A program made the translations under genes and the position numbers. From positions 9,084 through 73,083 of the forward strand of contig JANMKN010000043.1 in NCBI GenBank assembly GCA_031372065.1: DNA of 64,000 nucleotides, read 5' to 3'. This document shows positions 41,567-62,650 of the stretch, piece by piece. The notes under the pieces are model-generated. The model did not search any database. It was not told the origin of the DNA and was given only the letters and a program-made list of their open reading frames with translations. The stretch's first letter is position 1, and the number at the start of each line of letters is the position of its first letter. This stretch comes from Abditibacteriaceae bacterium. Lineage in GTDB: Bacteria; Armatimonadota; Abditibacteriia; Abditibacteriales; Abditibacteriaceae.

Positions 41567-41606
41567 ATTAGCACTGGTGTTTGTGTAGTTTTCTGTGAGG
41601 TGTTTT

Positions 41607-46500: not shown

Positions 46501-48150
46501 TTACTCGCCCGGTGTGTCTTGTTGCGGATCGTGAGGGATGACGAAGATAAATTTGGAGCCTTTGCCGATTTCGCTTTCGGCCCAGATTTCGCCTTGATGA
46601 CGATCGACTAAATGCTTTACCAAAAACAGGCCAATGCCGGTGCCGCCTGCCATGCGGGTGTCTTGGTTATCCACGCGCTCGAACTTTTCAAAAACGCGGC
46701 TCAATTTGTTGGCCGGAATGCCGATGCCTTGATCGCTGATGCAAACTGTTAAATTCTTTTCGTCGCTGTTGAAATCCACCAGCACTTCGCCGCCATGCGG
46801 GGAGTATTTGATGGCATTGGAAACGAGATTGGTGATGATCTGATCGAATTTGTCGCAGTCGCCAGTGATAGGCGGAATGGTGCTGCGTGTTTTGAGTTTG
46901 AGATGATGCTTATCGCTGGCGTAGGAGCGTTGCACGCGCAGGGCTTTTTGAGCAATTTCCACCGGATCGAACGTGCTCCAGTTCATTTCCAGCGCGCGGC
47001 CCGATTCGATGCGCGAAACGTTTAATAAATCGTCAATCAGGCGGCGCAAACGGTCACATTCGCTATCAATAATCTCGTAGAACTCCAAACGGTCTTCGTT
47101 GGTGAAATAACCTTCGGTATCTTGCAAAAGCGTGGAGATAAAGCCCTTAATGGAAGTCAGCGGCGTGCGCAATTCGTGCGAAACGGTGGAGACGAACGCG
47201 GTTTTCATGCGCTCGACGTTGCGAATGGCCGTGATGTCGTTGAAAACCACGGCGACGCCCATTAATATATTGGAGCCGCCGTGTTGGGCGCGCACAAAGG
47301 CGGTTTGCGCTTGAAAAATGCGCGTTTCGCTGTCGTCGCCGATGCCCAATTGCACTTCGATTTCGCGATGCGTTTCGTGGCGTTGATCGAACACTTCGTC
47401 CAGCATTTCGCGCACTGTCGGGTTTTGAATGGCGTCGCGGAAATGTTTGCGCAGCGAATTTTCGCCCATGCCGAAAATCTGCGCCGCCGCCGGGTTCATC
47501 AGCGAAATCGTGCCGTCCGGGTCCAGCATGATAACGCCTGCCAAAAGGCTTTGCAGCGTGGCTTGCAACTGTTCTTTTTCTTCGGCAAGGCGCAAATACA
47601 TTTGCGCGTTGGTGATGGCGGCAGTCACTTGCCGCGCCATAGTGTTTAAAAGCAGTAAATCTTCGCTGGAAAAGTCTTCGCCCGCGCGTTTGTTGATAAT
47701 CAGCAGCACGCCCACTGTAACGTGCGCGATGACGCGTTCTTGTTCGTCGCGGCGCTCCATAACGAGCGGTTGCGCGATGAGATTGCGCACATTTAAGGGG
47801 CCAAGGCGCGCGCGATCCGCTTCGGAAAGGCTTTCAAATTGGGCCGCCGTTTCGATGACAACAGGAGCACTATGGTGATAAACCTCGCCGCCCAAACCGG
47901 CGTTGGACGACAAGCGGAGTTGGCGAATTTGGTCGGGCGTAAGGCCCAAAGAAGGCGCTCTGGCTACCAAGTCGCTGCTTTCGTGATCGTAAAGCAGAAA
48001 CGCACAGCGCTCGGCCTGAAGCATCATCGCCACGCGGCGCACAAGACGCTGGAGCGTTTGTTCCAACTCAGTGGCCGAAGGCATTTGCGGCGAGGCGCCG
48101 TTGCCTGCCTGACCGTTGGAATGAGAATGCGTAGCGGGAGTATCTTCCAT
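46501..48150 (-). CDS. GAF-PAS sensor histidine kinase
   Basis: VSHELRTPLTSIKG, NLVSNAIKYS, GGTGIGL. Confidence 0.93.
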   Translation of the reverse strand: MEDTPATHSHSNGQAGNGASPQMPSATELEQTLQRLVRRVAMMLQAERCAFLLYDHESSDLVARAPSLGLTPDQIRQLRLSSNAGLGGEVYHHSAPVVIETAAQFESLSEADRARLGPLNVRNLIAQPLVMERRDEQERVIAHVTVGVLLIINKRAGEDFSSEDLLLLNTMARQVTAAITNAQMYLRLAEEKEQLQATLQSLLAGVIMLDPDGTISLMNPAAAQIFGMGENSLRKHFRDAIQNPTVREMLDEVFDQRHETHREIEVQLGIGDDSETRIFQAQTAFVRAQHGGSNILMGVAVVFNDITAIRNVERMKTAFVSTVSHELRTPLTSIKGFISTLLQDTEGYFTNEDRLEFYEIIDSECDRLRRLIDDLLNVSRIESGRALEMNWSTFDPVEIAQKALRVQRSYASDKHHLKLKTRSTIPPITGDCDKFDQIITNLVSNAIKYSPHGGEVLVDFNSDEKNLTVCISDQGIGIPANKLSRVFEKFERVDNQDTRMAGGTGIGLFLVKHLVDRHQGEIWAESEIGKGSKFIFVIPHDPQQDTPGE

Positions 48151-48249: not shown

Positions 48250-48744
48250 TTACCCAGTGTTGCCAGAATCTTCAGGACGCGCCTCGCTACCGGTGCCCTT
48301 ACGTTTTTCGTCTTTGCGCTTGTCTTCCTTGCGCTTGTCGTCCTTGCGTTCGGGTTTCAAATTCAGACGGGGCGCTTCGCTCGCGGGCGGTTTTTCGTCG
48401 CCTGCGGGCGGTGCGTGCTGGCGCAAAGCCGCCAAATCGTTGAGTTCCTTCAAATGCACTGAAAAATCAAGCAATTCCGCTTCGGAGATAGGCCCAGCTT
48501 CCGCCAGACGCTCACGCTCGTTGTCCGAAAGCTCATCGTGGTCTGGTTCCAATAATGTCCAGTCCCAACGCGCTTCGGGGACGAAAGTCTGCCCCATTCG
48601 CTTGCAGCGACGGCAGCGAAACTTGACGTAAACGTAATTTTGCCCCGGCGCCCGTTCGTATAAATCGGTGCGCATGATTTCTCTGGCTTGAATCCGATGC
48701 CCACAACAACGGCACTGCACTTCTTGTTTGCTCATACTGCCCAT
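48250..48744 (-). CDS. Zinc-ribbon hypothetical protein
   Basis: CRCCG...CRRC and a charged C-terminal tail. Confidence 0.7.
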   Translation of the reverse strand: MGSMSKQEVQCRCCGHRIQAREIMRTDLYERAPGQNYVYVKFRCRRCKRMGQTFVPEARWDWTLLEPDHDELSDNERERLAEAGPISEAELLDFSVHLKELNDLAALRQHAPPAGDEKPPASEAPRLNLKPERKDDKRKEDKRKDEKRKGTGSEARPEDSGNTG

Positions 48745-49068: not shown

Positions 49069-51780
49069 CTACTGCAAGCGAACGACGAATGTTACGGTGC
49101 CGCTGGCGCTGGGCGCTAAAGTGCCCGCGAAAGTCCATTTCAGCGCGCCGAAGGCATTCACAGCGGGTGTGGTAGCGGTAATGCCGGTTAAATTGGCGGG
49201 CAGGGCGCTGTTGGTTTGCGAAACAAAGAGTGTGAAGGCAGGAGTGGTGTCGTTGATGACTAAATTGCTCAGTGGCGTGCCACTGCCGTTGCGATAAGTG
49301 ATGGTGTAGGAAATCAAATCGCCCGATTTGGCGGTGGCGCGATCCACGCTTTTGGAAAGCACAAGGCCGGTTTCGCCCGCCACAGTGGTTGTATCGGTGT
49401 GCGTAAGGGTGCTACTCAGTGCTGGAACCGCGTTGGTGTAGGTGAACTGCGCCGTGGTGGTAATCAGATCGCGGGCGCCAATGGGCGCGTTGGCGGGAAC
49501 GAACTCTTTAACAATAATGGCAACTTGTTGATTGGCGGTGACGGCAAGCGGCGCCGTGATAATCGGTTCGCCTGCATCCAAGACGCCGTTAGCGTTGCTG
49601 TCGAGATAAATCACGTTTTGCCAAAGGTTGTTGGCGGGCGTGGCGATATTCGTAGTAGAAAAAGTGACGCTTCCGGCACTTCCGGCAGTGAAAACGTGCG
49701 GATAAGTGACGGTGGCACCGGGCACGCCGTTTTGCGCGCCATCGTTAGTAAAGATATTGAGCGGCACATCGCCAAAATTGACGTTTGAATAAGTTGTGCC
49801 GACAGCGTTGGTGAAAGTCGTGGCGTCCGTGGCGCGATTATAAGTGCCGCCAGTATTGCCTACCGTGGCGCCCGTCGAAAGGTAATTGGCCGCGTTGGTT
49901 TCTTCGACGCGCAGAATTTGCGCGCCGATGGCAGCGCGAATATAAAGCGTATAATTACCAGCGCCGTCGGTGGTAGCCGTATCAAAAATGGTCGTATCCG
50001 CCGCGTTGGTTAAAGCCACCGTCACGCCGCTGACCCCTGCTTCGCCGCCGTCGCGGATGCCATTGTTAGCCGTGCCACCGCCCAGTCCATTGTCGTTAAA
50101 AACGCGCCCGCTCAATTTGCTGCCGTTAAACAAGCCAAAATTCTGGTTTATTACGTTAGTATTATCGGGCACTGTCACGTCAATGGCGCCTGTAGGCGCT
50201 TGCGTAGCGATGTAACCTGCCGGAATTGCCGGAGTAATATCGGTGAGCGTGTTGTTGTCGTCCAAAACAACGGTGTAGTTGCCGGTTGCCACGCCCAAAA
50301 TCTGATAACCGCCGGTGGTCGGATTAACCGCGACGGCTTGCGTGGCGACGGCGCTGTTTTGCGGCACCAGTTTCACAAAAAGAGTCGCCAAACCTGTTCC
50401 GGTTTCGTTGTTGCCCAGATTACCATTGTGATCGTCATCGGCGTAAACCACGCCTGAAATGGTGCTTTGCGGCGAGATATTAGTGGTTTTGGTAACAAAC
50501 AGCGTGGTAATGGTGCCCGGCGCGACTTTGGTATCCATCAGCGAAGTGCCGTTGATACGCGTGCTGTCGGTAGCGGCGGCTCCGGCGGTTGGTGTGACGC
50601 GCAAGATAAAATTCTTGGTTTGATTGGGCGTCAAAATGCCCGTATCCACTTTGCCGTCGCCATCGGTATCGGTCAGCGCCGCGCTACCGCTATCCAGCAG
50701 TTGCACTGTATAATTCGCCGCTGTGTTGGATGTCGTCAACTCAATGATGTCGTTGGTAAAAAACAGGTTGGTAACCGAAAAAGGATGATCTACCGGCACT
50801 CCGATAGTCGTGGAAAGCACATCATCGGGCGTAATACGGAAGTTGCCGGCGTCGCCAGTGACCGGATTTTGGTCAAGCAAAACCAACCGATTGCCAGCAT
50901 TGGCTTCGAGAATGAACTGGTTATTAGCCGAGATATTGTTGACATTGATTTGCCATACGCCCACATCTGGCAAGGTGCCTGTTGTGGTGTTGACTACGAT
51001 GGTGTCCTGCCCTGTATTAAGCGTCGGGGAGGGGCCGTTCCATAAAGCATTGCCTGACACCGTGCCAGCCACTGTAGTGCTGTTGGGACGGGTGTAAACC
51101 AAGGTGCCGGAACTGTCCATGTCGAAGTTTCGCAGGGTCAGATTCGGGTTGCCGGGGCCGACCAAAAAATAAAAAGTGTAGCTTTGCGGCGTTGCCGCGA
51201 AATGCACCAGCGTGCTTTGGTATTGACCAATCAGGGTGGATGTGCCGGGAATGGAAATGGTGTAAGAATTGTCGTCGTCGTTGAGCGTTGTTGTATTATC
51301 GCCATTAATCGGTGTGGCACCAGTGACGGTTACCACTTGATACGAACCCGCCGCGTTAATGTTGAAGGTGACAACGGTGCCATCGGGCGAACCCGAAGGC
51401 ACCGTTGTGGATTGCAAAACTGTGATGCCGTTTGGCGCTCGCAATTCAAAACGCGTTGGGTCGGGCGTGCCGGTTACTTCATCGCCGCCCGCACCATTCG
51501 ATTCGGCATCGCTGATGGTCACCGTCACGTTGCCGCCGTTGGCATCCAGCAAGGCTTGACTGACTTCGACGATAAAGCGATGAGTGCGGTCTGTGCTGCT
51601 ACTGGTGGCTGTTGTATACCAGTCGCCGATACCCGGCGGGCGCTGTTGGCCGCTGGTTTGAAAAGCGAGATTGGGCTGCGAAGGCAGCGTGCCCGCAAAG
51701 GCAAGCGATGAAGCGAAAAACAACGCGCCGCACAGGAAGCCTAAAAGCCAACCAAATTTTTGCATTTGCGCTGTTCTCAT
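49069..51780 (-). CDS. Secreted DUF11/SdrD-B protein, putative fimbrial tip adhesin
   Basis: Signal peptide, unique N-terminal domains, two SdrD-B-like repeats (SG.V..D...NG), truncated C-terminal DUF11; ATGA overlap with the upstream gene. Confidence 0.8.
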   Translation of the reverse strand: MRTAQMQKFGWLLGFLCGALFFASSLAFAGTLPSQPNLAFQTSGQQRPPGIGDWYTTATSSSTDRTHRFIVEVSQALLDANGGNVTVTISDAESNGAGGDEVTGTPDPTRFELRAPNGITVLQSTTVPSGSPDGTVVTFNINAAGSYQVVTVTGATPINGDNTTTLNDDDNSYTISIPGTSTLIGQYQSTLVHFAATPQSYTFYFLVGPGNPNLTLRNFDMDSSGTLVYTRPNSTTVAGTVSGNALWNGPSPTLNTGQDTIVVNTTTGTLPDVGVWQINVNNISANNQFILEANAGNRLVLLDQNPVTGDAGNFRITPDDVLSTTIGVPVDHPFSVTNLFFTNDIIELTTSNTAANYTVQLLDSGSAALTDTDGDGKVDTGILTPNQTKNFILRVTPTAGAAATDSTRINGTSLMDTKVAPGTITTLFVTKTTNISPQSTISGVVYADDDHNGNLGNNETGTGLATLFVKLVPQNSAVATQAVAVNPTTGGYQILGVATGNYTVVLDDNNTLTDITPAIPAGYIATQAPTGAIDVTVPDNTNVINQNFGLFNGSKLSGRVFNDNGLGGGTANNGIRDGGEAGVSGVTVALTNAADTTIFDTATTDGAGNYTLYIRAAIGAQILRVEETNAANYLSTGATVGNTGGTYNRATDATTFTNAVGTTYSNVNFGDVPLNIFTNDGAQNGVPGATVTYPHVFTAGSAGSVTFSTTNIATPANNLWQNVIYLDSNANGVLDAGEPIITAPLAVTANQQVAIIVKEFVPANAPIGARDLITTTAQFTYTNAVPALSSTLTHTDTTTVAGETGLVLSKSVDRATAKSGDLISYTITYRNGSGTPLSNLVINDTTPAFTLFVSQTNSALPANLTGITATTPAVNAFGALKWTFAGTLAPSASGTVTFVVRLQ

Positions 51781-54700
51781 TCGTTCACCAACTGATTCAA
51801 ACTGCCGGGACGATCTCCGCTAAGTGGATTGTCATTGCGCGCGACTGCCGGGGCCAAACCTGCATTAGCCACAGGCTTAAAGGTTTCGTCGTTTAAAGTC
51901 GCACCCGGCTTGCGGAAGCCGCTCCAGCCGTTCAAGGAATTTTCGTCGAACTTGAAACGAAGTCGCAAATAGGCGCCGCGTTGCGTCCATTCGTCGGCGG
52001 ACAAATCGTTGTCGTAGAAGCCGAAGAAATTGTAGCCAGCCGAAAGCATCATATCGCGCGTTAGCAGATAACCAAATTCCACTCCCATGCCTTGTTGACT
52101 GCCGCCGCCCCACAAACGGCTGCCGATTAAGCTCAATATCATGCGGCGATTTAAATCTTTGGTCAGGCGCGCCGACAGCAAATGCACCGAAGTGCGGCTC
52201 GATAAATCGGGCGTGGCTTCGTAGGCTTTTTTCCACGCGTAATGCAAGCGCATTTGCACGCTCGCTGAGGGCTGATAATTGCCGTCCAGCGACAAAATAT
52301 GCACGCGGCGTGTCAGGTTTTGCGCGAACGTCGGATTGCCGGACGTCGCGCCGAATTGCGACGGATTGTCGTCAAAGCGATATTCGTATTTCATCAGTGC
52401 ATTAAAGCGATCTGTATCGGTTTGGCGATACGCGAGGCCCATTTGCAAGCGGCCTTGCGTGCGGTCATTAAGCGCAGTGTCCGAATTAGTCTTGGTATAG
52501 GCTTCGCGCGCCAAAAGCGTTAAATTGCGGCCCGGTTTCCACGCAATGCCCGCTGTGGACAGAAAGTTATCGCCGCCGCTGGCTTTGCGGCCTTCCAAGC
52601 GGCCTGTGGCGCGAAAAGTTTCGCCACGCAAAAATTCAAGGCCGATGCCTGCTGCCGTCCCATCGTCCAACAAAACACCGCCGGGGCCGTTTAAGGTTTG
52701 CACGCGCTCAAAATTGGTGCTGAGTTTGAGGCCCGGCGCGAGATTCCACAAATTGCGTAGGCCCAGCGCGGCCTGTGCGCTACGGCCATCAATGCCGTTG
52801 CCCAAGCGATATTCACCGAAAAGCGAGCCATTTTTCATGTAATCGCTTTCGATGCCAAAACGCGTGTTATATTGGCGCTGCGATTCATTAAGCGCGTAAA
52901 GTCCGCCGAACGAATCGAGAAATTCATGCGCCACATAAAGGCGACTGCGATTGGCAATTTGATATTCGCCACCGATTTGAAAACTTTGTTTGCTATCACT
53001 CAAAGAACGTTCGTAGCGCGTAAACGCTGTAATTTTGGGATGATTTGGCATTTGCGCGGCTAAACGGGCAAAAGCCGTGGTGAAATTCACGTTGCCAAGG
53101 CCAAGTTGCGGCGTGTTTGAAGCGCCGCCTTCGCTGGAAGCGTGACGAACGCCAGTTTGCAAGCGCAAACTCTTGCCCAGCGCTGTGTCCATCGCCAACT
53201 GCGCGCCGGTGAGGGTGCCGCCGTTGAGGGCATCGCCAGTGCGCATCACTTCGCCATTCAAGCGCGTTTTGGTGTTCAACTTATAAGAAGCGCGCGCCGA
53301 AATTTCGCGGCGGCCATTGCTCAAAATGGATTCGGGATTGTCAAAAGCCGCGTCGCTGCGGCCCACAAACAAACGCGCTTGCATCCGTTCGCTGTTGTGC
53401 AAGAGTTCCAATTTTTTCGCGTCGCCCTTGCCCAAATTGGTATCCGTGCGCGCCCATTCGCCGAACAAAACGGTTTGCTGATTGAAGCGATAAACCGCGT
53501 TTAGCGATTGCAAGGTTGTCGGGTCTTGCGGGTTGGCATCTTTTGTCCATGCCGCGCCAACTTGAAAATTGTTGCCGATTTTATACTGGCCGTTCAATCC
53601 CCAAACGTTGAAATTCGGGCCGCCTTGGTCAACTTCGTAAGTAATGCGGATGAAAACCGGATTGCCATCGGGGTCAATTGAAGGAACCGGACGACGAAAC
53701 AAAATGCCTTCGGTCAGGCCGTCAATGGAATAATCAGTGAAGCGTTCTTGGGCCGTGGTGCGCAAAATAAGGCCCGGCTGATTGCGGTCGCGCACGATGA
53801 TTTCCACTTTTTCGCTGCCATCAATGGCGCCGGTTGTCAGCAAGCGATACGGGCCGGAAATGCCGCGTCCGGGAATTTCGTCAATCACGCGGCGATTATT
53901 ATCGCGGGCGAAAAAGAAATTGGTCGAATATTTTTGCTTTTCGCCGTGCAATTGCACGCCGTTGAGCGAGCGCGAATAACGGCTGAGGCTGTCACTGGTT
54001 TCGGCGCCCGAAGTCAGAAAGTCGCCGTATAAAACGTAGCTTTGATTTTTGTCCACGCGCACATAAAGGCGGCTGGTAGATTGTGCGTCGAAGCCTTTAA
54101 TCGAAGAATCGCCGTAAACCGGATAATATTCGTCCGGCTGAATATCGCGGAAGAGGCGCTCGCCGCTTTCCAGTTCCGAATCGTAGCGCATCGTCAGCAG
54201 ATATTTGCCTTGCACGCTGCCTTTGAGAAACATCGCGCTGCGGCCTTCCAAGCGCGTCGAATTGCTTTGCGAAATTTTACGTAAATCGTCTTCAAACAAG
54301 TCGGATGTGTTGATGGGGCGCGCGCCGGACGGACGGAAGCGGAACAAATTTAATTTGGCATCCAGCACGCCGGTGGCCGTAAGCGGGCGCAGTTCCGGCA
54401 CGAAGCTGATTTCGCCGGTTGAAGCCATCAATCCGCTGGAAACGCGAATCAGGCATTGGCCCGGCTCGGAGGGCGACACGAGGAGAAATTCGCCCCGCCC
54501 ACCTTCGATAAATAATTGCACGCCCGGCTCGACTTCGTTGAGGTCGCGCTGCAACCACTCGCCCCGGCTGGATTCAAGCGTAATCGGCGTGCGCGCCGTA
54601 ACGAAAACGCCGCGCTTGTCCACCAATTCGACACGAATTTTAATCGGCGTCAGGCCATCGGCGGGCAAAGTTTTGTCGGGCAAAAACAAGCGCAAGAGGC

Positions 54701-57700
54701 CCAAATCGCCGGGCGCCGTAACGCTGATTTTCACGCGCCCTTTTTCGTTGCCAAAGCTATCCAATTGCACGGCTTCGAGCGTGTTGGCGCCCGCTTCGAG
54801 GCCAACGCCAATATATTCCCACGCTTGCAACTGCTTGGCGGCCAAAGTGCTGCGTGTGCCGACGCGCGTATCGGCGAGTTCCTGCCCGTTGACAAACAAT
54901 TTGAAACTGGCGCCCGCCATGCCCTTCACACGCACATTGGTTTGGCGCTGGGCCAGCGTGTCGCCGTCTTTGAGGTCAATAAAGCCGAGTTCGTTGGTGA
55001 CGGTGGGCAAAATTTCTTCGAGCGGCACCGATGAGGGCAACGTCGCGGGCGACGGGGCAATCGGCAGGCCGATTTGACTGTCCAGCGGCTTGGAAAGCAC
55101 ATTGACATCGTTTAAACCGGCGGGAATATTCGGCGTGATATTAGTTGTTTGCAAATTGCCGCCGGTTTCCGAGTCGCGCATTCCCGGCGCGCCATTGTTG
55201 GCGACAATCGGGTTTTTCAAGCGCGTGTTGAACGAACCGCTGCCCGGATTGCCGCTGGGCGTGTAAGCAGAATTCTGGCTCGTATTGGTGGGGAAACTGC
55301 CCGGCGCGCTGCCCGCCGAAACGGTGCCGCTGGCCGGCAAAGCGCGCGGGTCGGAGGGCGTGATTTGCTGCCCGTCCGGGTTCAAATTGGCGCGCACGCC
55401 GCCGTCAATTTCCGAAATCTGTTTGGCTAAAGCGCGGCGTTTTTCCACTTGATCTAAAATCTGTGGCGTGGCGGCGATGTCGGCGAAGTTGACTTTTTGC
55501 ATTTCGCCGTTTTTCAGGTCGGCAAAAGCCGAATCGCCGCGCCGTCCGTGGTTCGTCGTCAGCGGCTCCAATTGCACACCGGCGGGCAAAGTTTGCGCGT
55601 CCACTTTGACCGTATGCGTCGTAGCGCGCACGCCGTAAAGGGAATATTTGCCTTCTTGATCTGTTACCGAAAACGTGCCGTCTTCAAGCCAGATGCGCAC
55701 GCCGGGAATGCCGTCTTCGCCTTTGTCCTGCACGCGGTTGCGGTTTTTGTCCACAAACACTTTGCCGAAAATAATACCGCGCGTGGTGAAGACGCCGCCG
55801 ATAATTTTGACGGGCGCCGAGGCCACATTCGACTGCACTGTGCCAAAAACCGTGGCGCCGTTGGCCTGTGCGCGGTTGATATTTTCGCCCGTGGCCGCGC
55901 CGGGGCCGATTTTGGTGCGATACGAAATAATCGTTTCGGCGCCAATGGCGAAATTGCCCAAATTAAAGGTCAAACGCGGGCCGCGTCCACCCGACGGATC
56001 GGCGATGGCATTGCCGTCGCGCCGCGCGCTTTTTAATTGATATTCAAAACCACGCGGCAGCAAATCTTCGAGCGTGACATTGGTGAGTGCAAAACCTGTG
56101 GTGTTGCGCACGCGCACTTGATAATCCACCCAATCGGCGATTTCGGCTTGCCTTTTGGACGCGATTTTTTCGAGAAACAAACCCGCAGGCGGCGGGCCAT
56201 CAAGCGGCACATCAAGCGTGACGGTGCCGGTTTGAATCGTCACTTGAAACGGGCCACCATAGGAGCCGGAAATATCAATAACGCGTCCCGGCGGCAGCGA
56301 ACCGGGCGGCACTTGTGAAGGAAAAGTGAAGCCCGCTGGCGGCTCAATAACCAGACGATAGGTGCCCGGAATAATTTGCGGGAATTGAAACGCACCATCG
56401 GGGCCGGTGATAACAGTGGCTGATACAACCGTGACGCCATCGAAATCCAAAACGCGGGCTGGGCCTCCGGCATTGCCGCCGTTGCTGACGCCATTGACAT
56501 CAATTAAAGTGACGCGCGCGCCTTGAACCGGCAAATTGGTGCGCGAATCGAAAACCACGCCCAGTGGGTCAATCAAGATAATGGCGACGGCATCGGCTTG
56601 TCCGGCGCAATCGCTCAGGCGCGCAGTGAGCGAATCGTCAGCGCGGATGGACAAACTGTTATCTGCCGGGTCAGCCGCGCCATTATTGGTTGGCACCGAA
56701 GGCAAAACGCGAAAAATGCCGGTGTTCGGGCCGGTTTCGGTGGCAAGGCGCGCGATGGAATCGCCAGTGAGCAGTGAGCGAATCGTGATGGTAATTTGCT
56801 CAATGCGCGTCGGGTCTTGGTTGCACGAAGCGGCGGTGCCTTGCACGAAAAGCGGGCGTCCTAAGCCGGTTACTGTAGTGGGGCGCGCGAAATTATCGTC
56901 TGTATAATACGAAATCGTTGGCGGCACACGCGGCAGTGTCACTTGAACGGGGTTGGACGGCGTTTCGAGGCGCTGATTGGTAAATGACTCGGCGCCAAAT
57001 AAAACCGCCGTGTTGCTGATAATGCCGCTGGCGTTGGCATTGGCGCGCACGCGCAGCGTCAGGCGCACTTCGCCACGCGGCGGATAGATGACTAATCCGG
57101 CAGCGATGGCATCCACGCTGCCAAGCGGCGGCGGTGTAGTGACATAGGTGTGCAGCGGATCGCCAATGCGATGATAAAGTTTGATGGCCGTGCCGGGAAC
57201 GGCGAAATCAATCAGCGTGGTGTTGGCCGGAATGACATCGCGCAAAACCACAAGCGCGCGGTTTTGGCCGTCAACAATCGTTGGAATGCCAACCGGCTCA
57301 ATGGCGCCGAGGCTTTGCGACAACACGCTGAAAACTATTTCTTCGCCGGGCGCTGAATTCAACTTTTGCACGGCTTTGCTTACGCGCAGCGACACGCCGG
57401 GCACGGTTTGAATGGTATCGGTGTTAAATTCGCGGGCGCCTTGCGTCAGGCTGATGGCCGTAATGCGCACTTGCGCCGATTGTCCAACGGGCGCGGTAGG
57501 TGGGACAGTGCCAACAACGAGCAAATCAACGAATTCGTTGGGCGCTAAAGCAATACGGTCATTGGCGCTGAGTTCGGTTTCGCCCGGATCAAGCTGTCCG
57601 TTGCTGTTAGCATCGCGCAAAACGCGCAAGTCCGTCAAATCGTAGCCATCGCCCGCGAGATTTGCCACGATAACCGAATAATTCGTGGGCGTGTTGCCGG

Positions 57701-57974
57701 TATTGGTCAGGCGATGAGGCAAAGTCACTGAGGCGCCCGGCGGCACTGTTACATTTTGGTCACTGGTAAGAAGCAGGGCTTCTTGCGGCAGAATGGAAAT
57801 TTGAACTTCGTTGGAATCAATGGAAAAAAATTCTTCGCCGCTTTGATAAGTCGCTGTGGCTTTGTTGTTTACGAAACTGCCCGCCTGCGGCACTTGAGCG
57901 CGCACCACGCCACTGGCGAAAAAGCTCAATAGTAGGGCAGTCAGCAAGAAAAAGCGAGTCACGCGGGTGCGCAT
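51777..57974 (-). CDS. DUF11/SdrD-B protein with large C-terminal outer-membrane beta-barrel, putative anchor/usher-like
   Basis: Signal peptide, two complete DUF11 domains, IFGKVFVDKNRN SdrD-B module, long amphipathic beta region ending GAYLRLRFKFDE. Confidence 0.8.
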   Translation of the reverse strand: MRTRVTRFFLLTALLLSFFASGVVRAQVPQAGSFVNNKATATYQSGEEFFSIDSNEVQISILPQEALLLTSDQNVTVPPGASVTLPHRLTNTGNTPTNYSVIVANLAGDGYDLTDLRVLRDANSNGQLDPGETELSANDRIALAPNEFVDLLVVGTVPPTAPVGQSAQVRITAISLTQGAREFNTDTIQTVPGVSLRVSKAVQKLNSAPGEEIVFSVLSQSLGAIEPVGIPTIVDGQNRALVVLRDVIPANTTLIDFAVPGTAIKLYHRIGDPLHTYVTTPPPLGSVDAIAAGLVIYPPRGEVRLTLRVRANANASGIISNTAVLFGAESFTNQRLETPSNPVQVTLPRVPPTISYYTDDNFARPTTVTGLGRPLFVQGTAASCNQDPTRIEQITITIRSLLTGDSIARLATETGPNTGIFRVLPSVPTNNGAADPADNSLSIRADDSLTARLSDCAGQADAVAIILIDPLGVVFDSRTNLPVQGARVTLIDVNGVSNGGNAGGPARVLDFDGVTVVSATVITGPDGAFQFPQIIPGTYRLVIEPPAGFTFPSQVPPGSLPPGRVIDISGSYGGPFQVTIQTGTVTLDVPLDGPPPAGLFLEKIASKRQAEIADWVDYQVRVRNTTGFALTNVTLEDLLPRGFEYQLKSARRDGNAIADPSGGRGPRLTFNLGNFAIGAETIISYRTKIGPGAATGENINRAQANGATVFGTVQSNVASAPVKIIGGVFTTRGIIFGKVFVDKNRNRVQDKGEDGIPGVRIWLEDGTFSVTDQEGKYSLYGVRATTHTVKVDAQTLPAGVQLEPLTTNHGRRGDSAFADLKNGEMQKVNFADIAATPQILDQVEKRRALAKQISEIDGGVRANLNPDGQQITPSDPRALPASGTVSAGSAPGSFPTNTSQNSAYTPSGNPGSGSFNTRLKNPIVANNGAPGMRDSETGGNLQTTNITPNIPAGLNDVNVLSKPLDSQIGLPIAPSPATLPSSVPLEEILPTVTNELGFIDLKDGDTLAQRQTNVRVKGMAGASFKLFVNGQELADTRVGTRSTLAAKQLQAWEYIGVGLEAGANTLEAVQLDSFGNEKGRVKISVTAPGDLGLLRLFLPDKTLPADGLTPIKIRVELVDKRGVFVTARTPITLESSRGEWLQRDLNEVEPGVQLFIEGGRGEFLLVSPSEPGQCLIRVSSGLMASTGEISFVPELRPLTATGVLDAKLNLFRFRPSGARPINTSDLFEDDLRKISQSNSTRLEGRSAMFLKGSVQGKYLLTMRYDSELESGERLFRDIQPDEYYPVYGDSSIKGFDAQSTSRLYVRVDKNQSYVLYGDFLTSGAETSDSLSRYSRSLNGVQLHGEKQKYSTNFFFARDNNRRVIDEIPGRGISGPYRLLTTGAIDGSEKVEIIVRDRNQPGLILRTTAQERFTDYSIDGLTEGILFRRPVPSIDPDGNPVFIRITYEVDQGGPNFNVWGLNGQYKIGNNFQVGAAWTKDANPQDPTTLQSLNAVYRFNQQTVLFGEWARTDTNLGKGDAKKLELLHNSERMQARLFVGRSDAAFDNPESILSNGRREISARASYKLNTKTRLNGEVMRTGDALNGGTLTGAQLAMDTALGKSLRLQTGVRHASSEGGASNTPQLGLGNVNFTTAFARLAAQMPNHPKITAFTRYERSLSDSKQSFQIGGEYQIANRSRLYVAHEFLDSFGGLYALNESQRQYNTRFGIESDYMKNGSLFGEYRLGNGIDGRSAQAALGLRNLWNLAPGLKLSTNFERVQTLNGPGGVLLDDGTAAGIGLEFLRGETFRATGRLEGRKASGGDNFLSTAGIAWKPGRNLTLLAREAYTKTNSDTALNDRTQGRLQMGLAYRQTDTDRFNALMKYEYRFDDNPSQFGATSGNPTFAQNLTRRVHILSLDGNYQPSASVQMRLHYAWKKAYEATPDLSSRTSVHLLSARLTKDLNRRMILSLIGSRLWGGGSQQGMGVEFGYLLTRDMMLSAGYNFFGFYDNDLSADEWTQRGAYLRLRFKFDENSLNGWSGFRKPGATLNDETFKPVANAGLAPAVARNDNPLSGDRPGSLNQLVNE

Positions 57975-58021
57975 TATGTGTTTTGTTCTTACTAAAAAGT
58001 AAATTTTGAAATTTAGGGTTA

Positions 58022-58057
58022 AGGGAGCGAGGCAAATTTGATTTTGCCTCGCTCCCT
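58022..58057 (-). terminator. Strong intercistronic hairpin after the putative major pilin
   Basis: agggagcgaggcaaa-tttgat-tttgcctcgctccct perfect 15-bp stem. Confidence 0.75.
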
Positions 58058-58082
58058 TGTGCTAACGGAAGAAACCGAAGTT

Positions 58083-60656
58083 TTAGCCGTTGATCGTCAC
58101 GCCAAAGGTAATCACAGCCGATTGGCCGGGATTGAGCGTGCCGATGTTGAATCGCAATGAGCCAGCGGCGTTATTAGCGGGCGTCGCACCATTGGCGCCT
58201 GTCGCAGCCGTAAAAGCTCCACCATTGACCGAGAAGCCGCCAACGCCTGTGATGGTATTGGTGCCGTCGCCGATGTTATAGGTGGTGAAAGTCGGTGTGG
58301 CGTCATTGACAACCACGTTGGTCACTGGCGCGCTACCCGTATTGGTTACCACAATGCGATAACGCACAATGCTGCCGGGCAGGGCGGTTTGGCGGGCCTG
58401 CGTGAACGGGCCGCCATTGACCGATTGGAATTTGTCCACTTTCAGGTCACCCGAAACCACGGTGGTGGTGTCAGTGGCCGTATCGGTGGAAACGCCATCT
58501 GTGCCAGTGATGGTCGTCACGTTGACCGAACCATCGGAAGCGCCCGCCGGAGCGAAGACGCGCACGAAGATGGGAATGCTGACGCCGGGTGCCAGCGAGG
58601 GAATCGTAGTCAGTGGGATCGCGGCTTCGGCGGGATCAAGGATGCCGTTGTTGTTGGTGTCCTGATAAATCACGCTGGTGAAGCCGGGCTGCGTGTTGAT
58701 TCCGGTCAGCGCCACATTGGTCAACGTGGTGTTACCCGTGTTGGTGACTGTGTGCTGATAGGTAATCGCGCTGCCTTGGAAGACCTGGCCGGTGTTATTC
58801 GGTTCAACGCTGATGCCATTGACCGGATTGACCGTTACGCGATCATGAATAATGTCGGCGGAACCCGTCGTTGGCGAAATGGAACGGAAGAACAGTTCCA
58901 CGTTGCCCGGCGAAGCGTTGGCCGGAATCGTGATGCGCGCCGTGAGGTTAGCCGAAGCGCCGGGCGCCAAAGTGCCGGTATTGGTGACAACTGCGCCAGT
59001 GGAATCCACGAAGACAACCGTGAAGCCAGCAGGTAGGCCAACCGGTGGTGAGAAGACAGCCGTGTTCGACACTTGCAAATTGTAGTTGTCGGGCACAGGG
59101 CCGGTATTGACGACCACGACAGGAATCGTCACCGTCGCGCCGGGGTTGCCAGTGACTGTTGTCACGGGAGCCGCTTCAGGGCCAGCCCCTGTTCCTGCAC
59201 CAGCCGCATTCCGAATGTCCACGCTGGCCGCAGTAATAGCGGTTAAGGTGTCCGTTGCCGGATCGCTCACTGACGGATTATTGGTTGACGTGGCGATCTT
59301 GTTAATACTGAAGGGGCCGCCAGTCGCTGGGCCGGGTAGTGTCACTTGTAACACTACATTGTAAGTGCCGCCAGCCAAAACGGGGCCGGTATCGGGGATG
59401 CCGTTGCCGTTTGAGTCAAGTAGCGGTGTTACGCCATCGCTTTGATACAACTTGTAAGATGAGCCAGCCGGGAAGGTCGAAGCCGCCGTATTCAGCGTGA
59501 TGTCGAAGGTGTCGGTGCCGTTGCCCGTGTTGGTCAACAAGTTGGAGAATGTTACCACGCCGCCTTGCGGGACGGTCGCCACTGTTTGTCCATCGAAGGT
59601 TACGCCTGCATTCTGGGTGATGGTGAAAATCACCGTGTTCGACGTGCCGTTTTTGTTCGGTGTGGCACCGTTGTTATCGTCGTCGTAGCTAAAGTTCGCC
59701 GTGTTAGGAATTGTGCTGGGCGGAACGTTGGCGTTCACGTTCACTTGGAACGTGACGCGTCCTGTGGCACCAGCGGGAACTGTGGCAACGACGGCTGTAA
59801 CAGTGCCAGCCGCGAAGCTGTAATTGATGCCTGCTGGGTCGCCGCCTGCCGGATCAGTCAGTGGCGTGGCGCCCGAAGCGCTCCAACGTCCCGAACCGGC
59901 CACATAAGTCATACCGGTGGGCACTATGTCGGTCAATTGCAACGCTGTCGCTGCTTGGTTGCCGGTGTTGGTATAGGTCAAGGTATAAGTGCGTGGGCCG
60001 CTGGGCGAAGCGCCTTGCCCCACGTCAATGCTCTTGACCACATTGATAACCGCGTTGACCGAAACCGTAACGGTATCCGTATTGGTGACAGTCACCGTAT
60101 TATCAAAACCGCTGGTCGCTCTTACCAGAACGTTGGCCGTTTGGCCTGCTGTGGCCGTCGGCGGCACAACACCAGCGACAACGAACTTAAAGTTGGCGCC
60201 AGCAGCCAATGGGCCGGTTGAGGTAATCGGCGTGTTATTGTCTGGCACACCATTGCCATCGGCGTCGGCATACATAACCGGCACGATGTCGAAGTTGTCT
60301 CCGCCCTGATCAACCACAGTCAGCCCGATGGTGTCGGTGCCGTTGCCATTGTTGACAACCGTGTGCGGAAAGTAAATCGGGCTACCGGGAGCCGCGATTT
60401 TGGAGTTGTTCGCCGTTAAACTGATAGCGGCGACTTGCTGCACTGTCGTTTGCACAGTGTTCGATGTGGCAGTGCGCGTGACATTGGAGCCATCCGTATA
60501 GGTGGCGGTGGCTTGGTTTCCAATAACAGAGTTAGCCGGTGGCGGCGTCTGAGCGCGGACTGCGCCGCTAAATGCACACAAAAAAACCGCTACAGCGAAG
60601 ATCGTCAGTAACGGCTTGAATTGTTGCAGGATGCGGCAAAAATTGCTTTGCGTCAT
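58083..60656 (-). CDS. Secreted DUF11 repeat protein, putative major fimbrial subunit
   Basis: AAAGGAG RBS, signal peptide, T/N/G-rich Ig-like repeats, one complete and one truncated DUF11 domain. Confidence 0.85.
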   Translation of the reverse strand: MTQSNFCRILQQFKPLLTIFAVAVFLCAFSGAVRAQTPPPANSVIGNQATATYTDGSNVTRTATSNTVQTTVQQVAAISLTANNSKIAAPGSPIYFPHTVVNNGNGTDTIGLTVVDQGGDNFDIVPVMYADADGNGVPDNNTPITSTGPLAAGANFKFVVAGVVPPTATAGQTANVLVRATSGFDNTVTVTNTDTVTVSVNAVINVVKSIDVGQGASPSGPRTYTLTYTNTGNQAATALQLTDIVPTGMTYVAGSGRWSASGATPLTDPAGGDPAGINYSFAAGTVTAVVATVPAGATGRVTFQVNVNANVPPSTIPNTANFSYDDDNNGATPNKNGTSNTVIFTITQNAGVTFDGQTVATVPQGGVVTFSNLLTNTGNGTDTFDITLNTAASTFPAGSSYKLYQSDGVTPLLDSNGNGIPDTGPVLAGGTYNVVLQVTLPGPATGGPFSINKIATSTNNPSVSDPATDTLTAITAASVDIRNAAGAGTGAGPEAAPVTTVTGNPGATVTIPVVVVNTGPVPDNYNLQVSNTAVFSPPVGLPAGFTVVFVDSTGAVVTNTGTLAPGASANLTARITIPANASPGNVELFFRSISPTTGSADIIHDRVTVNPVNGISVEPNNTGQVFQGSAITYQHTVTNTGNTTLTNVALTGINTQPGFTSVIYQDTNNNGILDPAEAAIPLTTIPSLAPGVSIPIFVRVFAPAGASDGSVNVTTITGTDGVSTDTATDTTTVVSGDLKVDKFQSVNGGPFTQARQTALPGSIVRYRIVVTNTGSAPVTNVVVNDATPTFTTYNIGDGTNTITGVGGFSVNGGAFTAATGANGATPANNAAGSLRFNIGTLNPGQSAVITFGVTING

Positions 60657-60824
60657 GTTCACTCTCCTTTGAGTGGGGGAAATGGCACTGCGAAACTACA
60701 AAAACGAAACGTCAAAATTACTGTCTTACGACGGGATTGGGCGAAGGTTTTCGTGGTCAAATCTGCTTACGCAACCTCGCTTCACAAACCGCTGCTGTCG
60801 CAGAGCGATAAAAGAGGCGAAGTT

Positions 60825-61397
60825 TTAGCGGCCCGCCTCCTTTCCCACCGTGACTGTCTCGGCGGACTTGGACGCAGATTTAACAGGCCCCAAAACGCGG
60901 ACGCGGGCGAAGACCGTGACTTTTTTGCCAGCGGCCAGTTCGCTTATGCTCCAACGCAGGGCGCGGTATTGGCTAAGAGGAATTAGTTCGACTTTGGTGC
61001 TGCCGTCAGCGCTTTTGCTAACGCGCTTAAGAGGCAGCGAAGCGAAGGTTTTGCCGTCGGTGCTAGCTTGCGCATCATCCGGCAGAGCGCTGCCCGACAC
61101 GAATTCCATGCCACCGGGAATCGGCAGCGTGGCGGCTAAATTTTTCACGCTTTGCGTGCCATTGTTGGCATAGCGCGCCTGATATTCGATGGTTTCGCCC
61201 GGCTTGATTTTATCGGCGGCTGCCAATTCGTCTTTTTCGCCTTTGGCGACGATTTTATAAGCCGTCAATTGCACATCAACCGGCCCTTTGCCCGCTTGTG
61301 CCCACAGAACACTGGTGCAACCAATTCCTGCCAAAAATCCAATAGCACACGTCAAAGTGCGGCCTCGTGCAAGAAATGGCTTGTTGAGATTTTTCAT
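60825..61397 (-). CDS. Small secreted single DUF11-like protein, putative chaperone
   Basis: AAGGAG RBS, signal peptide, PGETIEY...N.G....NL....PIP.GM.FV.GSA...LRW.I..L.AG. Confidence 0.8.
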   Translation of the reverse strand: MKNLNKPFLARGRTLTCAIGFLAGIGCTSVLWAQAGKGPVDVQLTAYKIVAKGEKDELAAADKIKPGETIEYQARYANNGTQSVKNLAATLPIPGGMEFVSGSALPDDAQASTDGKTFASLPLKRVSKSADGSTKVELIPLSQYRALRWSISELAAGKKVTVFARVRVLGPVKSASKSAETVTVGKEAGR

Positions 61398-61484: not shown

Positions 61485-61771
61485 ACCTGAATACCGGTTT
61501 TTGAAACAATATCTCTTCGAGTATTTTTGGCCAATTATAGATTTTTTTGCAATTGCAAATTGCAATGAAATATCAATATATTGTGCTGTGAAAAGAATTG
61601 AAGGCCGTATGTTGTGGTTTTTGCATAGATGTTTTAGTATGATAAAACTGGATTTCAGTGGTGAAGCGAGAAAGCGCGGTTAAAATTAACGCATTCTTCA
61701 CATCACCGTAATCGAATTCGAGCAAAATAAAGTGTCGGTAGGATTTGCAGAAGATGCAGGAGAAACCCGTC

Positions 61772-62650
61772 ATGTCACAAACAATGGCCCAAAACGCCCG
61801 TCAGAACAACCACTCAAACAGATTGCACCGAGCTTTTACGCTCATTGAACTCTTGGTCGTCATAGCGATAATAGCGCTCCTCGCGGCCATTCTGTTTCCC
61901 GTTTTCGCCCGTGCTCGTGAAAATGCGCGCAAATCAAGTTGTCTGAACAATTTGAAGCAGATTGGCCTTGGCTTTCAGCAGTATTCACAAGACTATGATG
62001 GCATGACGCCCGGTTCCAGTAGCACTGGTGGTAATGCCTCGTGGCCGAGTTTGTTGATGCCTTACGTTAAAAGCGAGCAAATTTTCGCGTGTCCTTCGGG
62101 CACAACCTCTCCTGCCATTCGCAGCGATGTGATGCCCGCTTCAACGCGTGCTTATTGTGGCACTACTTCCAATGGCGATGGTTCAGCAACGGCGGAGAGG
62201 AAGTTGAATTTGGGCCTGTCTTATGGCGTTAATGCCATCACGGTGACCGCAACGTCTAACTTCACTACACCGGGTTTCACAGGGACAACAAGCGCACCGG
62301 GCGCAAATGGGCCAAAGTGCGGTTATGTAACGCCCGGCAACACGACTACTGTTGGTTTAGCGGACAGTGACGTTGAAGACCCGGCGGGCACAATCCGCGC
62401 TTTCGATTCGATGGCCGGCAGTGTTGGTGCCACAGATTGCAATCACGGCAATTCAATTCGCGCCATCAGTGCCGAAGATCGAACGGATCGCACTTTAACA
62501 GATACGGCTTCCAAAGTAGCACGGCGCCATTTTGAGGGTTTTAATGCCATGTATGGCGACGGACACGTTAAATATTACGTTAAGTGGGGCACAACCAAGG
62601 CTTCCGACTGGACAATTCAGCGCGATAATCCCGACGGCACACCGAAATAA
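61772..62650 (+). CDS. DUF1559 prepilin-type protein with H-X9-DG domain
   Basis: [37 protein letters not shown] and [16 protein letters not shown]. Confidence 0.92.

Follow-up and report, generated by a model that had tools for sequence, protein, structure and literature searches.

Positions 49,069 to 61,397 of the 64,000-nucleotide (nt) stretch of Abditibacteriaceae DNA analysed here (the window, in whose positions all operon coordinates are given) hold a four-gene operon on the minus strand. Its products probably build a surface fibre ordered barrel-(shaft)n-tip, in which subunits are joined by donation of a beta-hairpin and locked by an Asn-Lys bond, with an Asp as the catalyst. The domain concerned is DUF11, since renamed CLIPPER; its fold is CnaA-like, and a solved structure has an intramolecular bond between Lys715 and Asn806, with Asp748 as the presumed catalyst (PMC12617251). 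The sequences show a complementary split of this domain, with the reactive triad shared between chains, a barrel protein that only donates, a tip that only accepts and a small protein without the Asp. The first-pass annotation had proposed such a split across the termini of the four proteins, and it is borne out far beyond chance. The base, shaft and tip roles that it assigned by donor-hairpin complementation are likewise supported, since sequence, conservation, synteny and models all fit them. The Asn-Lys covalent bond and the polymer are what we infer from sequence and models. The features are as follows.

60825..61397, minus strand: small protein, 190 aa, with a signal-like N-terminus and one truncated CLIPPER/DUF11-like domain; Leu91 at the catalytic Asp position.
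58083..60662, minus strand: shaft (major subunit), 859 aa, with donor hairpin, Ig repeat, complete CLIPPER domain, three Ig repeats and truncated acceptor.
60435..60542, minus strand: shaft donor hairpin, aa 41-76, with Asn49 at the reactive position and a Ser67-Asn68 bulge.
59613..60056, minus strand: internal complete CLIPPER domain of the shaft, aa 203-350, with Lys210, Asp245 and Asn320.
58086..58451, minus strand: C-terminal acceptor of the shaft, aa 738-859, with Lys744 and Asp787; the last two strands are absent.
58021..58058, minus strand: RNA stem-loop 3′ of the shaft gene, a perfect 16-bp stem, single copy in the genome.
51777..57974, minus strand: barrel (base) protein, 2065 aa, with donor hairpin, Ig repeat, two complete CLIPPER domains, SdrD_B-like domain, further Ig-like region and large C-terminal beta-barrel; no acceptor.
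57789..57890, minus strand: donor hairpin of the barrel protein, aa 29-62, with Asn37.
55470..56189, minus strand: complete CLIPPER plus SdrD_B-like module, aa 596-835 of the barrel protein.
51915..54404, minus strand: predicted outer-membrane beta-barrel, aa 1191-2020, from the structure model.
49069..51780, minus strand: tip protein, 903 aa, with a variable N-terminal region (no Pfam family), SdrD_B-like domains, Ig repeat and truncated acceptor.
49072..49374, minus strand: C-terminal acceptor of the tip, aa 803-903, with Lys810 and Asp844.

In the list of open reading frames (ORFs) of the window, the four minus-strand frames run in the order small, shaft, barrel, tip. The shaft probably starts at the ATG at 60656 (857 aa), where a Shine-Dalgarno site is better spaced, and the barrel and tip genes overlap by 4 bases, with the tip start on the barrel stop codon. 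All four proteins match DUF11/PF01345 (27.5-53.6 bits against a curated cut-off of 24.6) and TIGR01451, and all four carry a hydrophobic N-terminal stretch by a crude hydropathy check, which is not a signal-peptide predictor. By motif and the same crude check, neither LPxTG nor a later or C-terminal membrane helix is found in any of the four. The genome holds one operon of this kind.

In the shaft, a profile built from the final two strands of the protein's own complete internal domain gives the hairpin (aa 41-76) 40.3 bits, a score equalled by 0 of 500 shuffles. Its C-terminal domain terminates after the F-x-V strand, and 120 of 120 aligned proteins end 0-4 residues from the same point, as the first-pass description of an N-terminal two-strand hairpin and a C-terminal domain lacking those strands had it. 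In the shaft (P0002) and 119 relatives, an alignment of the best of 1327 shaft matches found among 8000 candidates scored, Asn49, Ser67, Asn68, Lys744, Asp787 and Pro790 are each kept in 120 of 120. The barrel protein had been assigned the hairpin and no truncated domain. Its N-terminus aligns with that of the shaft (tblastn E 1e-14, aa 8-175); the hairpin alone matches the internal-strand profile weakly (8.5 bits; 1 of 500 shuffles reached the score). Across 120 barrel relatives, Asn37 is kept in 105, replaced by Ser in 11 and gapped in 4, the barrel runs to the C-terminus in 113, and a terminal acceptor is present in 0. The tip, assigned a truncated C-terminal domain and no hairpin, agrees with that assignment, its C-terminal Pfam match stopping at model position 83 of 114 (84-85 in six other tips). 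Over the loci examined, with two frameshifted shafts set aside, a regular expression for the hairpin motif hits 22 of 24 barrels and 21 of 24 shafts but 0 of 23 tips, the barrel and shaft misses being 2 split barrels and 3 shafts in which a hidden Markov model does find the hairpin. The Lys/Asp pair is complete in 24 of 24 shaft acceptors and 20 of 23 tip acceptors; the shaft and tip acceptors differ in sequence pattern.

As a control we used giant single-chain DUF11 adhesins from a 50%-representative search with the small-protein profile. An N-terminal hairpin occurs in 0 of the 150 examined, and a cut terminal domain in 5 of the 137 with a recognisable core. These five (P0164, P0227, P0230, P0254 and P0260) are giant DUF11 repeat proteins that may be very long tips or fragments. 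Because barrels are donor-only and tips acceptor-only, partners in trans are needed. It could instead be supposed that the shaft hairpin completes the C-terminus of its own chain, as a ring or a circular permutation, and that the other truncated domains fold alone. The monomer model, in which the hairpin exceeds 90 in predicted local distance difference test (pLDDT) with no partner chain, and the five giant adhesins that also finish in a cut domain would suit such closure in cis. We consider it very unlikely: donor-bearing barrels have an acceptor in 0 of 120 cases and acceptor-bearing tips a donor in 0 of 23, tips retain Lys and Asp without any cis Asn, and closure would have to suit both the five domains between the shaft ends here and the single one in the mini-shafts L024 and L025. 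Such mini-shafts, of about 310 aa with a hairpin, one Ig repeat and an acceptor, lie at L024:1315-2370, L025:1504-2544 and L069:8639-9649.

Structure models predict a CnaA/CLIPPER fold, hairpin binding in a groove of the small protein and a single large barrel. The shaft model has a mean pLDDT of 91.3, with the hairpin region at 91-96 and a strand pattern there that is the same as that of residues 316-348. Residues 201-349 of the model superpose on 9IFR, from the single-chain CLIPPER adhesin B9T28_05395 of Acinetobacter silvestris (PMC12617251), with Z 13.3, root-mean-square deviation (rmsd) 2.2 and 121 of 123 residues aligned. The internal domain likewise resembles BcpA (Z 15.1, rmsd 2.4, 131 aligned) and SpaD (Z 13.4, rmsd 2.8, 130 aligned). 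The whole shaft retrieves generic Ig arrays only in Foldseek and 0 matches in a PDB sequence search, in which the internal domain alone matches 2 antibody chains, by chance.

The identity of the reactive residues comes from alignment with SpaD. A profile of 23 internal domains places the Lys, the Asp and the Asn of an N-x-A motif on SpaD chain positions 163/200/275, in a weak match (E 0.12). The bonded triad of SpaD is Lys187/Asp224/Asn299 (PMC4014117), to which a single offset of 24 leads, so the donor residue is the N-x-A Asn. On this alignment the reactive donor is Asn49 in the shaft and Asn37 in the barrel protein, while the S-N motif of the hairpin is probably a bulge of the last strand; the Asn of S-N was considered as the bonding residue and rejected, because the SpaD triad puts the bond on the other one. 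The first-pass proposal that a hairpin Asn bonds to the Lys of the next subunit thus keeps its core, the triad being invariant where the bond needs it, but the bonding Asn is that of N-x-A and not that of S-N. The three internal CLIPPER domains of shaft and barrel protein each have the full Lys-Asp-Asn triad within one chain. The terminal domains of shaft, tip and small protein stop before the Asn strand, so that the triad is not in one chain, and no cis Asn follows the shaft acceptor, though Asn49, Lys744 and Asp787 are all kept in 120 of 120.

A fibre complemented by strands but held non-covalently, with Lys, Asp and Asn retained for folding, would explain the loss of triad residues in 3 of 23 tips and 11 of 120 barrel donors, and there is a parallel in the Asn mutant of BsaA, which is oligomeric until boiled (PMC11580942). 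We judge this distinctly unlikely, as Lys and Asp vanish together in the 3 tips and the shaft triad is complete in 120 of 120. The small protein, moreover, retains the fold while the Asp occurs in 0 of 120, a pattern understandable only if true acceptors use the Asp as their catalyst. The three tip acceptors without both residues (L048:6055-8022, L051:10262-12229 and L054:10438-12414) probably belong to non-covalent tips; that of L048 has five DUF11 matches, and two of the three genomes have a second operon.

For the small protein, the first-pass annotation was right about a single truncated domain and overlooked the absence of the catalytic Asp. Leu91 aligns to that Asp in a profile comparison (probability 94.7), and in 120 sequences the position is Leu in 116, Val in 3, Met in 1 and Asp in 0; a hairpin motif occurs in 0 of 120. 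A complex model of the small protein with the shaft hairpin (aa 38-82) scores 0.86 against 0.01 for the best control, with a partner pLDDT of at least 91 and contacts that agree in at least 98% between runs. Among solved complexes 116 of 157 attain that mark, and among mismatched pairs 2 of 215; as the small protein and the hairpin are halves of a split domain, the passing score may come from likeness to solved CnaA domains. In the modelled interface, Asn49, Ala51, Ser67, Asn68 and Val70 of the hairpin contact Leu44, and Ala51 contacts Leu91. Lys48 of the small protein was considered as a reactive Lys and discarded, since the position is Lys in only 70 of 120 and is absent from the modelled interface, where Leu44 touches Asn49 (a register that is itself model-based). 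The models suggest that the small protein is likely a catalytically dead catcher that caps donor hairpins reversibly. The chaperone role proposed for the 190-aa protein gains from this predicted binding, but the protein would receive a donor, the opposite of a PapD-type chaperone, and it has no PapD match in Pfam, NCBIfam or profile comparison. It also contains an inserted hairpin (aa 123-140), which might shield acceptors.

The barrel model comprises 7 long strands, a non-barrel insert and 31 further strands, about 38 in total when counted by hand from the model strands, which would possibly make it the largest single-chain barrel known. Structure searches return generic barrels only, with a template modelling score no higher than 0.26 on the query and a best Z of 14.0 (rmsd 7.0), and the porin matches cover the first and the last strands, which fits one closed barrel. 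Likeness to PapC (Z 9.6, rmsd 10.7, 291 aligned) and FimD (Z 9.1, rmsd 10.1, 326 aligned) falls below that to porins and is generic barrel likeness. Look-alikes in the Atlas are mostly unnamed clusters, a lack of close match that does not show a new fold. The usher family PF00577 is matched by 0 of 20 barrel members and nowhere in the 94%-complete genome, in a search that detected the E. coli positive control. Distant barrel relatives occur in 16 plasmid records, and in 3 of the 6 examined (Eleftheria, Pseudochrobactrum, Ralstonia) a gene for a single-chain adhesin precedes the barrel, and neither a donor nor a small gene was detected. These two-gene systems, a single-chain DUF11/SdrD adhesin and then a barrel homologue, lie at L065:4356-16589, L066:11074-16667 and L067:7366-16559, where the barrel homologues are annotated as OmpA family, TonB-dependent receptor or nothing. 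A CLIPPER plus SdrD_B-like module ends the segment or gene preceding the barrel homologue in 9 of 9 loci. The barrel family may therefore be a display platform common to the split system and to single-chain adhesins.

The expression of the shaft bears on whether it polymerises. The stem-loop at 58021-58058, after the shaft stop, has z -8.0 (0 of 200 shuffles), and stems with z <= -3 follow the shaft gene at 22 of 25 loci, against 6 of 24 for the small gene, 6 of 24 for the barrel and 5 of 23 for the tip. Codon usage among 2437 ORFs puts the shaft at percentile 97.8, the tip at the 83rd, the barrel at the 69th and the small protein at the 60th, and clear Shine-Dalgarno sites precede the shaft and small genes, with none clear for the barrel. 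The conserved gene order and the stem-loop after the shaft gene are seen directly in the sequences, and the stem-loop likely lowers the transcript level between shaft and barrel. A comparable step reportedly follows the major subunit gene in the fim and pap operons. A scan for promoters and terminators gave no informative outcome, and a look-up of RNA holders listed none. The stem after the shaft gene and the shaft codon usage, in the top 3%, favour an excess of shaft and hence a polymer. They stand against a modular adhesin of fixed length, in which the same trans joints would by their specificity give barrel, one shaft and tip, with no polymer. That arrangement gains some plausibility from the differing patterns of shaft and tip acceptors, and from the barrel relatives that adjoin single-chain DUF11/SdrD adhesins, which make a split adhesin a plausible origin. 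The shaft and barrel hairpins are nevertheless alike, and modelling lets the shaft hairpin fit a third groove as well, suggesting loose specificity; we hold the fixed-length adhesin to be unlikely.

The donor/acceptor pattern, which the first-pass annotation had made a matter for homologous operons, is conserved there on a synteny survey. The shaft profile is matched at some level in 51 of 201 genomes of the window's phylum, and of 20 regions fetched around strong shaft matches, 15 have the complete gene order small-shaft-barrel-tip. Of the other five, L052 shows no tip end in the stretch fetched, L060 and L061 are two halves from one genome, and L062 and L063 run up against contig ends. A search of genome contigs with the single shaft protein returned 2 loci only. 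The closest named relatives are Abditibacteriaceae/Abditibacterium records, and a look-up by place among relatives showed nothing. With variants, the gene order extends to several other phyla, and related operons are found in Thermus, Deinococcus, Pacificitalea, Sinorhizobium, Acinetobacter, Novosphingobium and two cyanobacteria, with a five-gene version on pTT27 of Thermus thermophilus HB8 (TTH_RS10905-10925). Some genes are in pieces through a frameshift or stop, from decay or sequencing error (shaft in L041, L043, L053 and L069; barrel in L044, L059 and L069). One family of the phylum has open frames of 560-720 aa with a donor hairpin and an Ig repeat (L027-L032); in the three scanned (L027-L029) a PQQ/BamB-like beta-propeller follows and no acceptor is seen, a different donor-only partner. 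A proteome table (PMC8779699) gives DR_0685 of D. radiodurans as a DUF11 protein.

Several observations weigh against a covalent fibre anchored in its own barrel. The stem counts come from kin loci and are not independent, and control gene ends often run straight into coding DNA; many of the loci as a whole are close kin and were picked by shaft match. The barrel model is of moderate quality (pLDDT 72.8, predicted template modelling score 0.66) and weak in the first 130 residues. Separate genes encode donor stalk and barrel in Thermus, Deinococcus and the two cyanobacteria, so that anchoring there needs another contact. The small gene was not found in the Deinococcus region L042, nor the tip in the Pacificitalea region L040. 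In the genome G059 (regions L060 and L061) the small and shaft genes lie about 210 kb from the barrel and tip genes on one contig. The high-confidence hairpin in the shaft monomer model may reflect closure in cis. Finally, 3 of 23 tips have lost both Lys and Asp and Ser replaces Asn in 11 of 120 barrel donors; with such losses, covalent locking is not universal. Separately, G059 parts the set into small plus shaft and barrel plus tip, and the stem-loop in the window falls at the corresponding point.

The favoured assembly would proceed as follows. Sec would carry the subunits over the inner membrane, and the small protein would hold each donor hairpin without bonding, which would keep polymerisation from beginning too soon in the periplasm. 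The tip, which lacks a donor, would start the chain and exit first through the barrel. Shafts would then join at the base, each joint locking with the loss of ammonia, until the hairpin of the barrel protein itself closes off the last shaft, whereby growth would end and the fibre be anchored. The variable tip might then bind surfaces or cells. Tip N-termini vary widely (open frames of 655-2317 aa; beta-helix, SdrD_B or DUF11 arrays) upstream of a constant Ig plus acceptor end, and the N-terminal region of the tip here gave only leads below 0.9 in the Atlas structure look-up. Passage of subunits through the barrel is a step that we infer, and its provisional standing counts both against this scheme and for one in which the same chemistry makes a chain that stays periplasmic or forms an envelope strut or coat instead of an external adhesive fibre. 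The N-terminus of an even-stranded barrel is normally periplasmic, which also suits such a strut. The widely varying, adhesin-like N-terminal regions of the tips oppose it, as do the CLIPPER domains reported in the stalks of surface adhesins (PMC12617251), and we give it an exceedingly small chance.

Compared with described systems, the single-chain CLIPPER adhesins share the domain family, the CnaA-like fold and the Lys-Asp-Asn triad, with three complete copies inside the shaft and barrel protein here. However, their bond is intrachain and their fibre one long polypeptide, as in GhlA of Litorilinea aerophila, a single chain with 49 DUF11 domains that is probably a trimer (10.1101/2025.08.19.671072, PMC13319060), whereas here the terminal domains are split between chains. 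The word "donor" is absent from the main texts of these papers (PMC12617251, 10.1101/2025.08.19.671072, PMC13319060). The BsaA fibres of C. perfringens combine donor-strand exchange with an autocatalytic, sortase-free intermolecular Asn-Lys bond, supported by mutants (PMC11580942). BsaA inserts an N-terminal donor into a neighbour and locks it by that bond; the present system is predicted from genes and models to do likewise. BsaA differs in its TasA family, Glu catalyst, short donor segment, SipW processing and single-membrane host, as against a CLIPPER fold, Asp catalyst, two-strand hairpin, multi-domain subunits, outer-membrane barrel and cap protein. Pfam and NCBIfam scans give no TasA-family match, and no peptidase family match is found among the four operon genes.

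Chaperone-usher pili (Fim, Pap) are alike in outline, with an acceptor-only tip, a shaft that donates and accepts, a donor-bearing terminator, a periplasmic helper and an outer-membrane barrel. In contrast, PF00577 is missing here, terminator and barrel form one fused protein, the donated element has two strands, the joints are probably covalent, and the barrel is predicted to be larger than the 24 strands of an usher. PapD and FimC donate a strand (PMC13721041), while the helper here is predicted to receive the donor; the same source, a 2026 review, describes chaperone-usher links as non-covalent and sortase links as covalent, and mentions DUF11 or CLIPPER 0 times in its first 300,000 characters (PMC13721041). 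Sortase pili (SpaD, BcpA, RrgB) have CnaA domains, the same triad positions and a covalent head-to-tail fibre with tip, shaft and base, but the proteins here lack LPxTG and a C-terminal membrane anchor, and the inter-subunit bond would be autocatalytic. The genome's one sortase-family gene (G000, contig C244:3711-4382) is unlinked to the operon. An usher or a linked sortase was therefore rejected, with no PF00577 match in the genome and the sortase on another contig. The archaeal thread Saci_0406 shares donor-strand complementation, a proposed inter-subunit isopeptide and a putative cap protein; its bond, however, links the Asp24 N-terminal amine with Asn57 of a subunit two places along, in an archaeon with no outer membrane (PMC9715654). 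Tat-fimbriae were dismissed as a relative, since the "DUF11" passages of PMC11821415 concern DUF1102; passages of PMC8779699, PMC12357932, PMC1274311 and PMC4229858 likewise had no bearing on the system. Among further fibre types, type V pili have a lipoprotein precursor and a donor strand released by a protease. The 101-sequence shaft consensus has no conserved Cys near the N-terminus, and Pfam and NCBIfam give no fimbrillin family match. On these comparisons the system does not fit the chaperone-usher, sortase, TasA/BsaA or type V kinds, yet works like a blend of chaperone-usher and TasA/BsaA.

Other genes of the window surround the operon. On the plus strand, 41595-46499 encodes a bacterial alpha-2-macroglobulin of 1634 aa, and 61745-62650, divergent from the operon, a prepilin-type DUF1559 / H-X9-DG protein. 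Directly downstream of the tip gene, 48250-48744 (minus strand) encodes a protein of 164 aa that carries two CxxC motifs and matches nothing in Pfam or NCBIfam; this gene is upstream of that for a GAF-PAS histidine kinase at 46501-48150.

The first-pass claim that this assembly logic is undescribed holds in part: donor strand plus isopeptide has a precedent in BsaA, while for the split-CLIPPER parts and the diderm route no description was found. The literature search for a split-CLIPPER pilus system likewise found no description, supplements and most subscription papers lying outside it. The system is likely undescribed in double-membrane bacteria, and there is a real chance of a new pilus class among donor-strand fibres. 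A joint proposal, to which we give slightly less than an even chance, is that this is a new enzyme-free covalent pilus class of many diderm phyla, in which CLIPPER halves act as tag and catcher, a dead catcher caps the donor, a barrel of about 38 strands provides its own route, and the same barrel family displays single-chain CLIPPER adhesins ending in a CLIPPER plus SdrD_B module. If the covalent fibre is real, a sortase-free covalent pilus would be added to the surface fibres of double-membrane bacteria, and a function would be provided for more than 1000 proteins labelled only "DUF11" (the 1327 shaft relatives among the 8000 candidates) and for an unnamed large barrel family. The small protein would then be a chaperone acting in reverse of PapD, and the split domains would be natural peptide-protein ligation pairs, thermophilic ones included. 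Thermus thermophilus HB8, with its five-gene version, is a tractable and harmless host suited to testing this directly.

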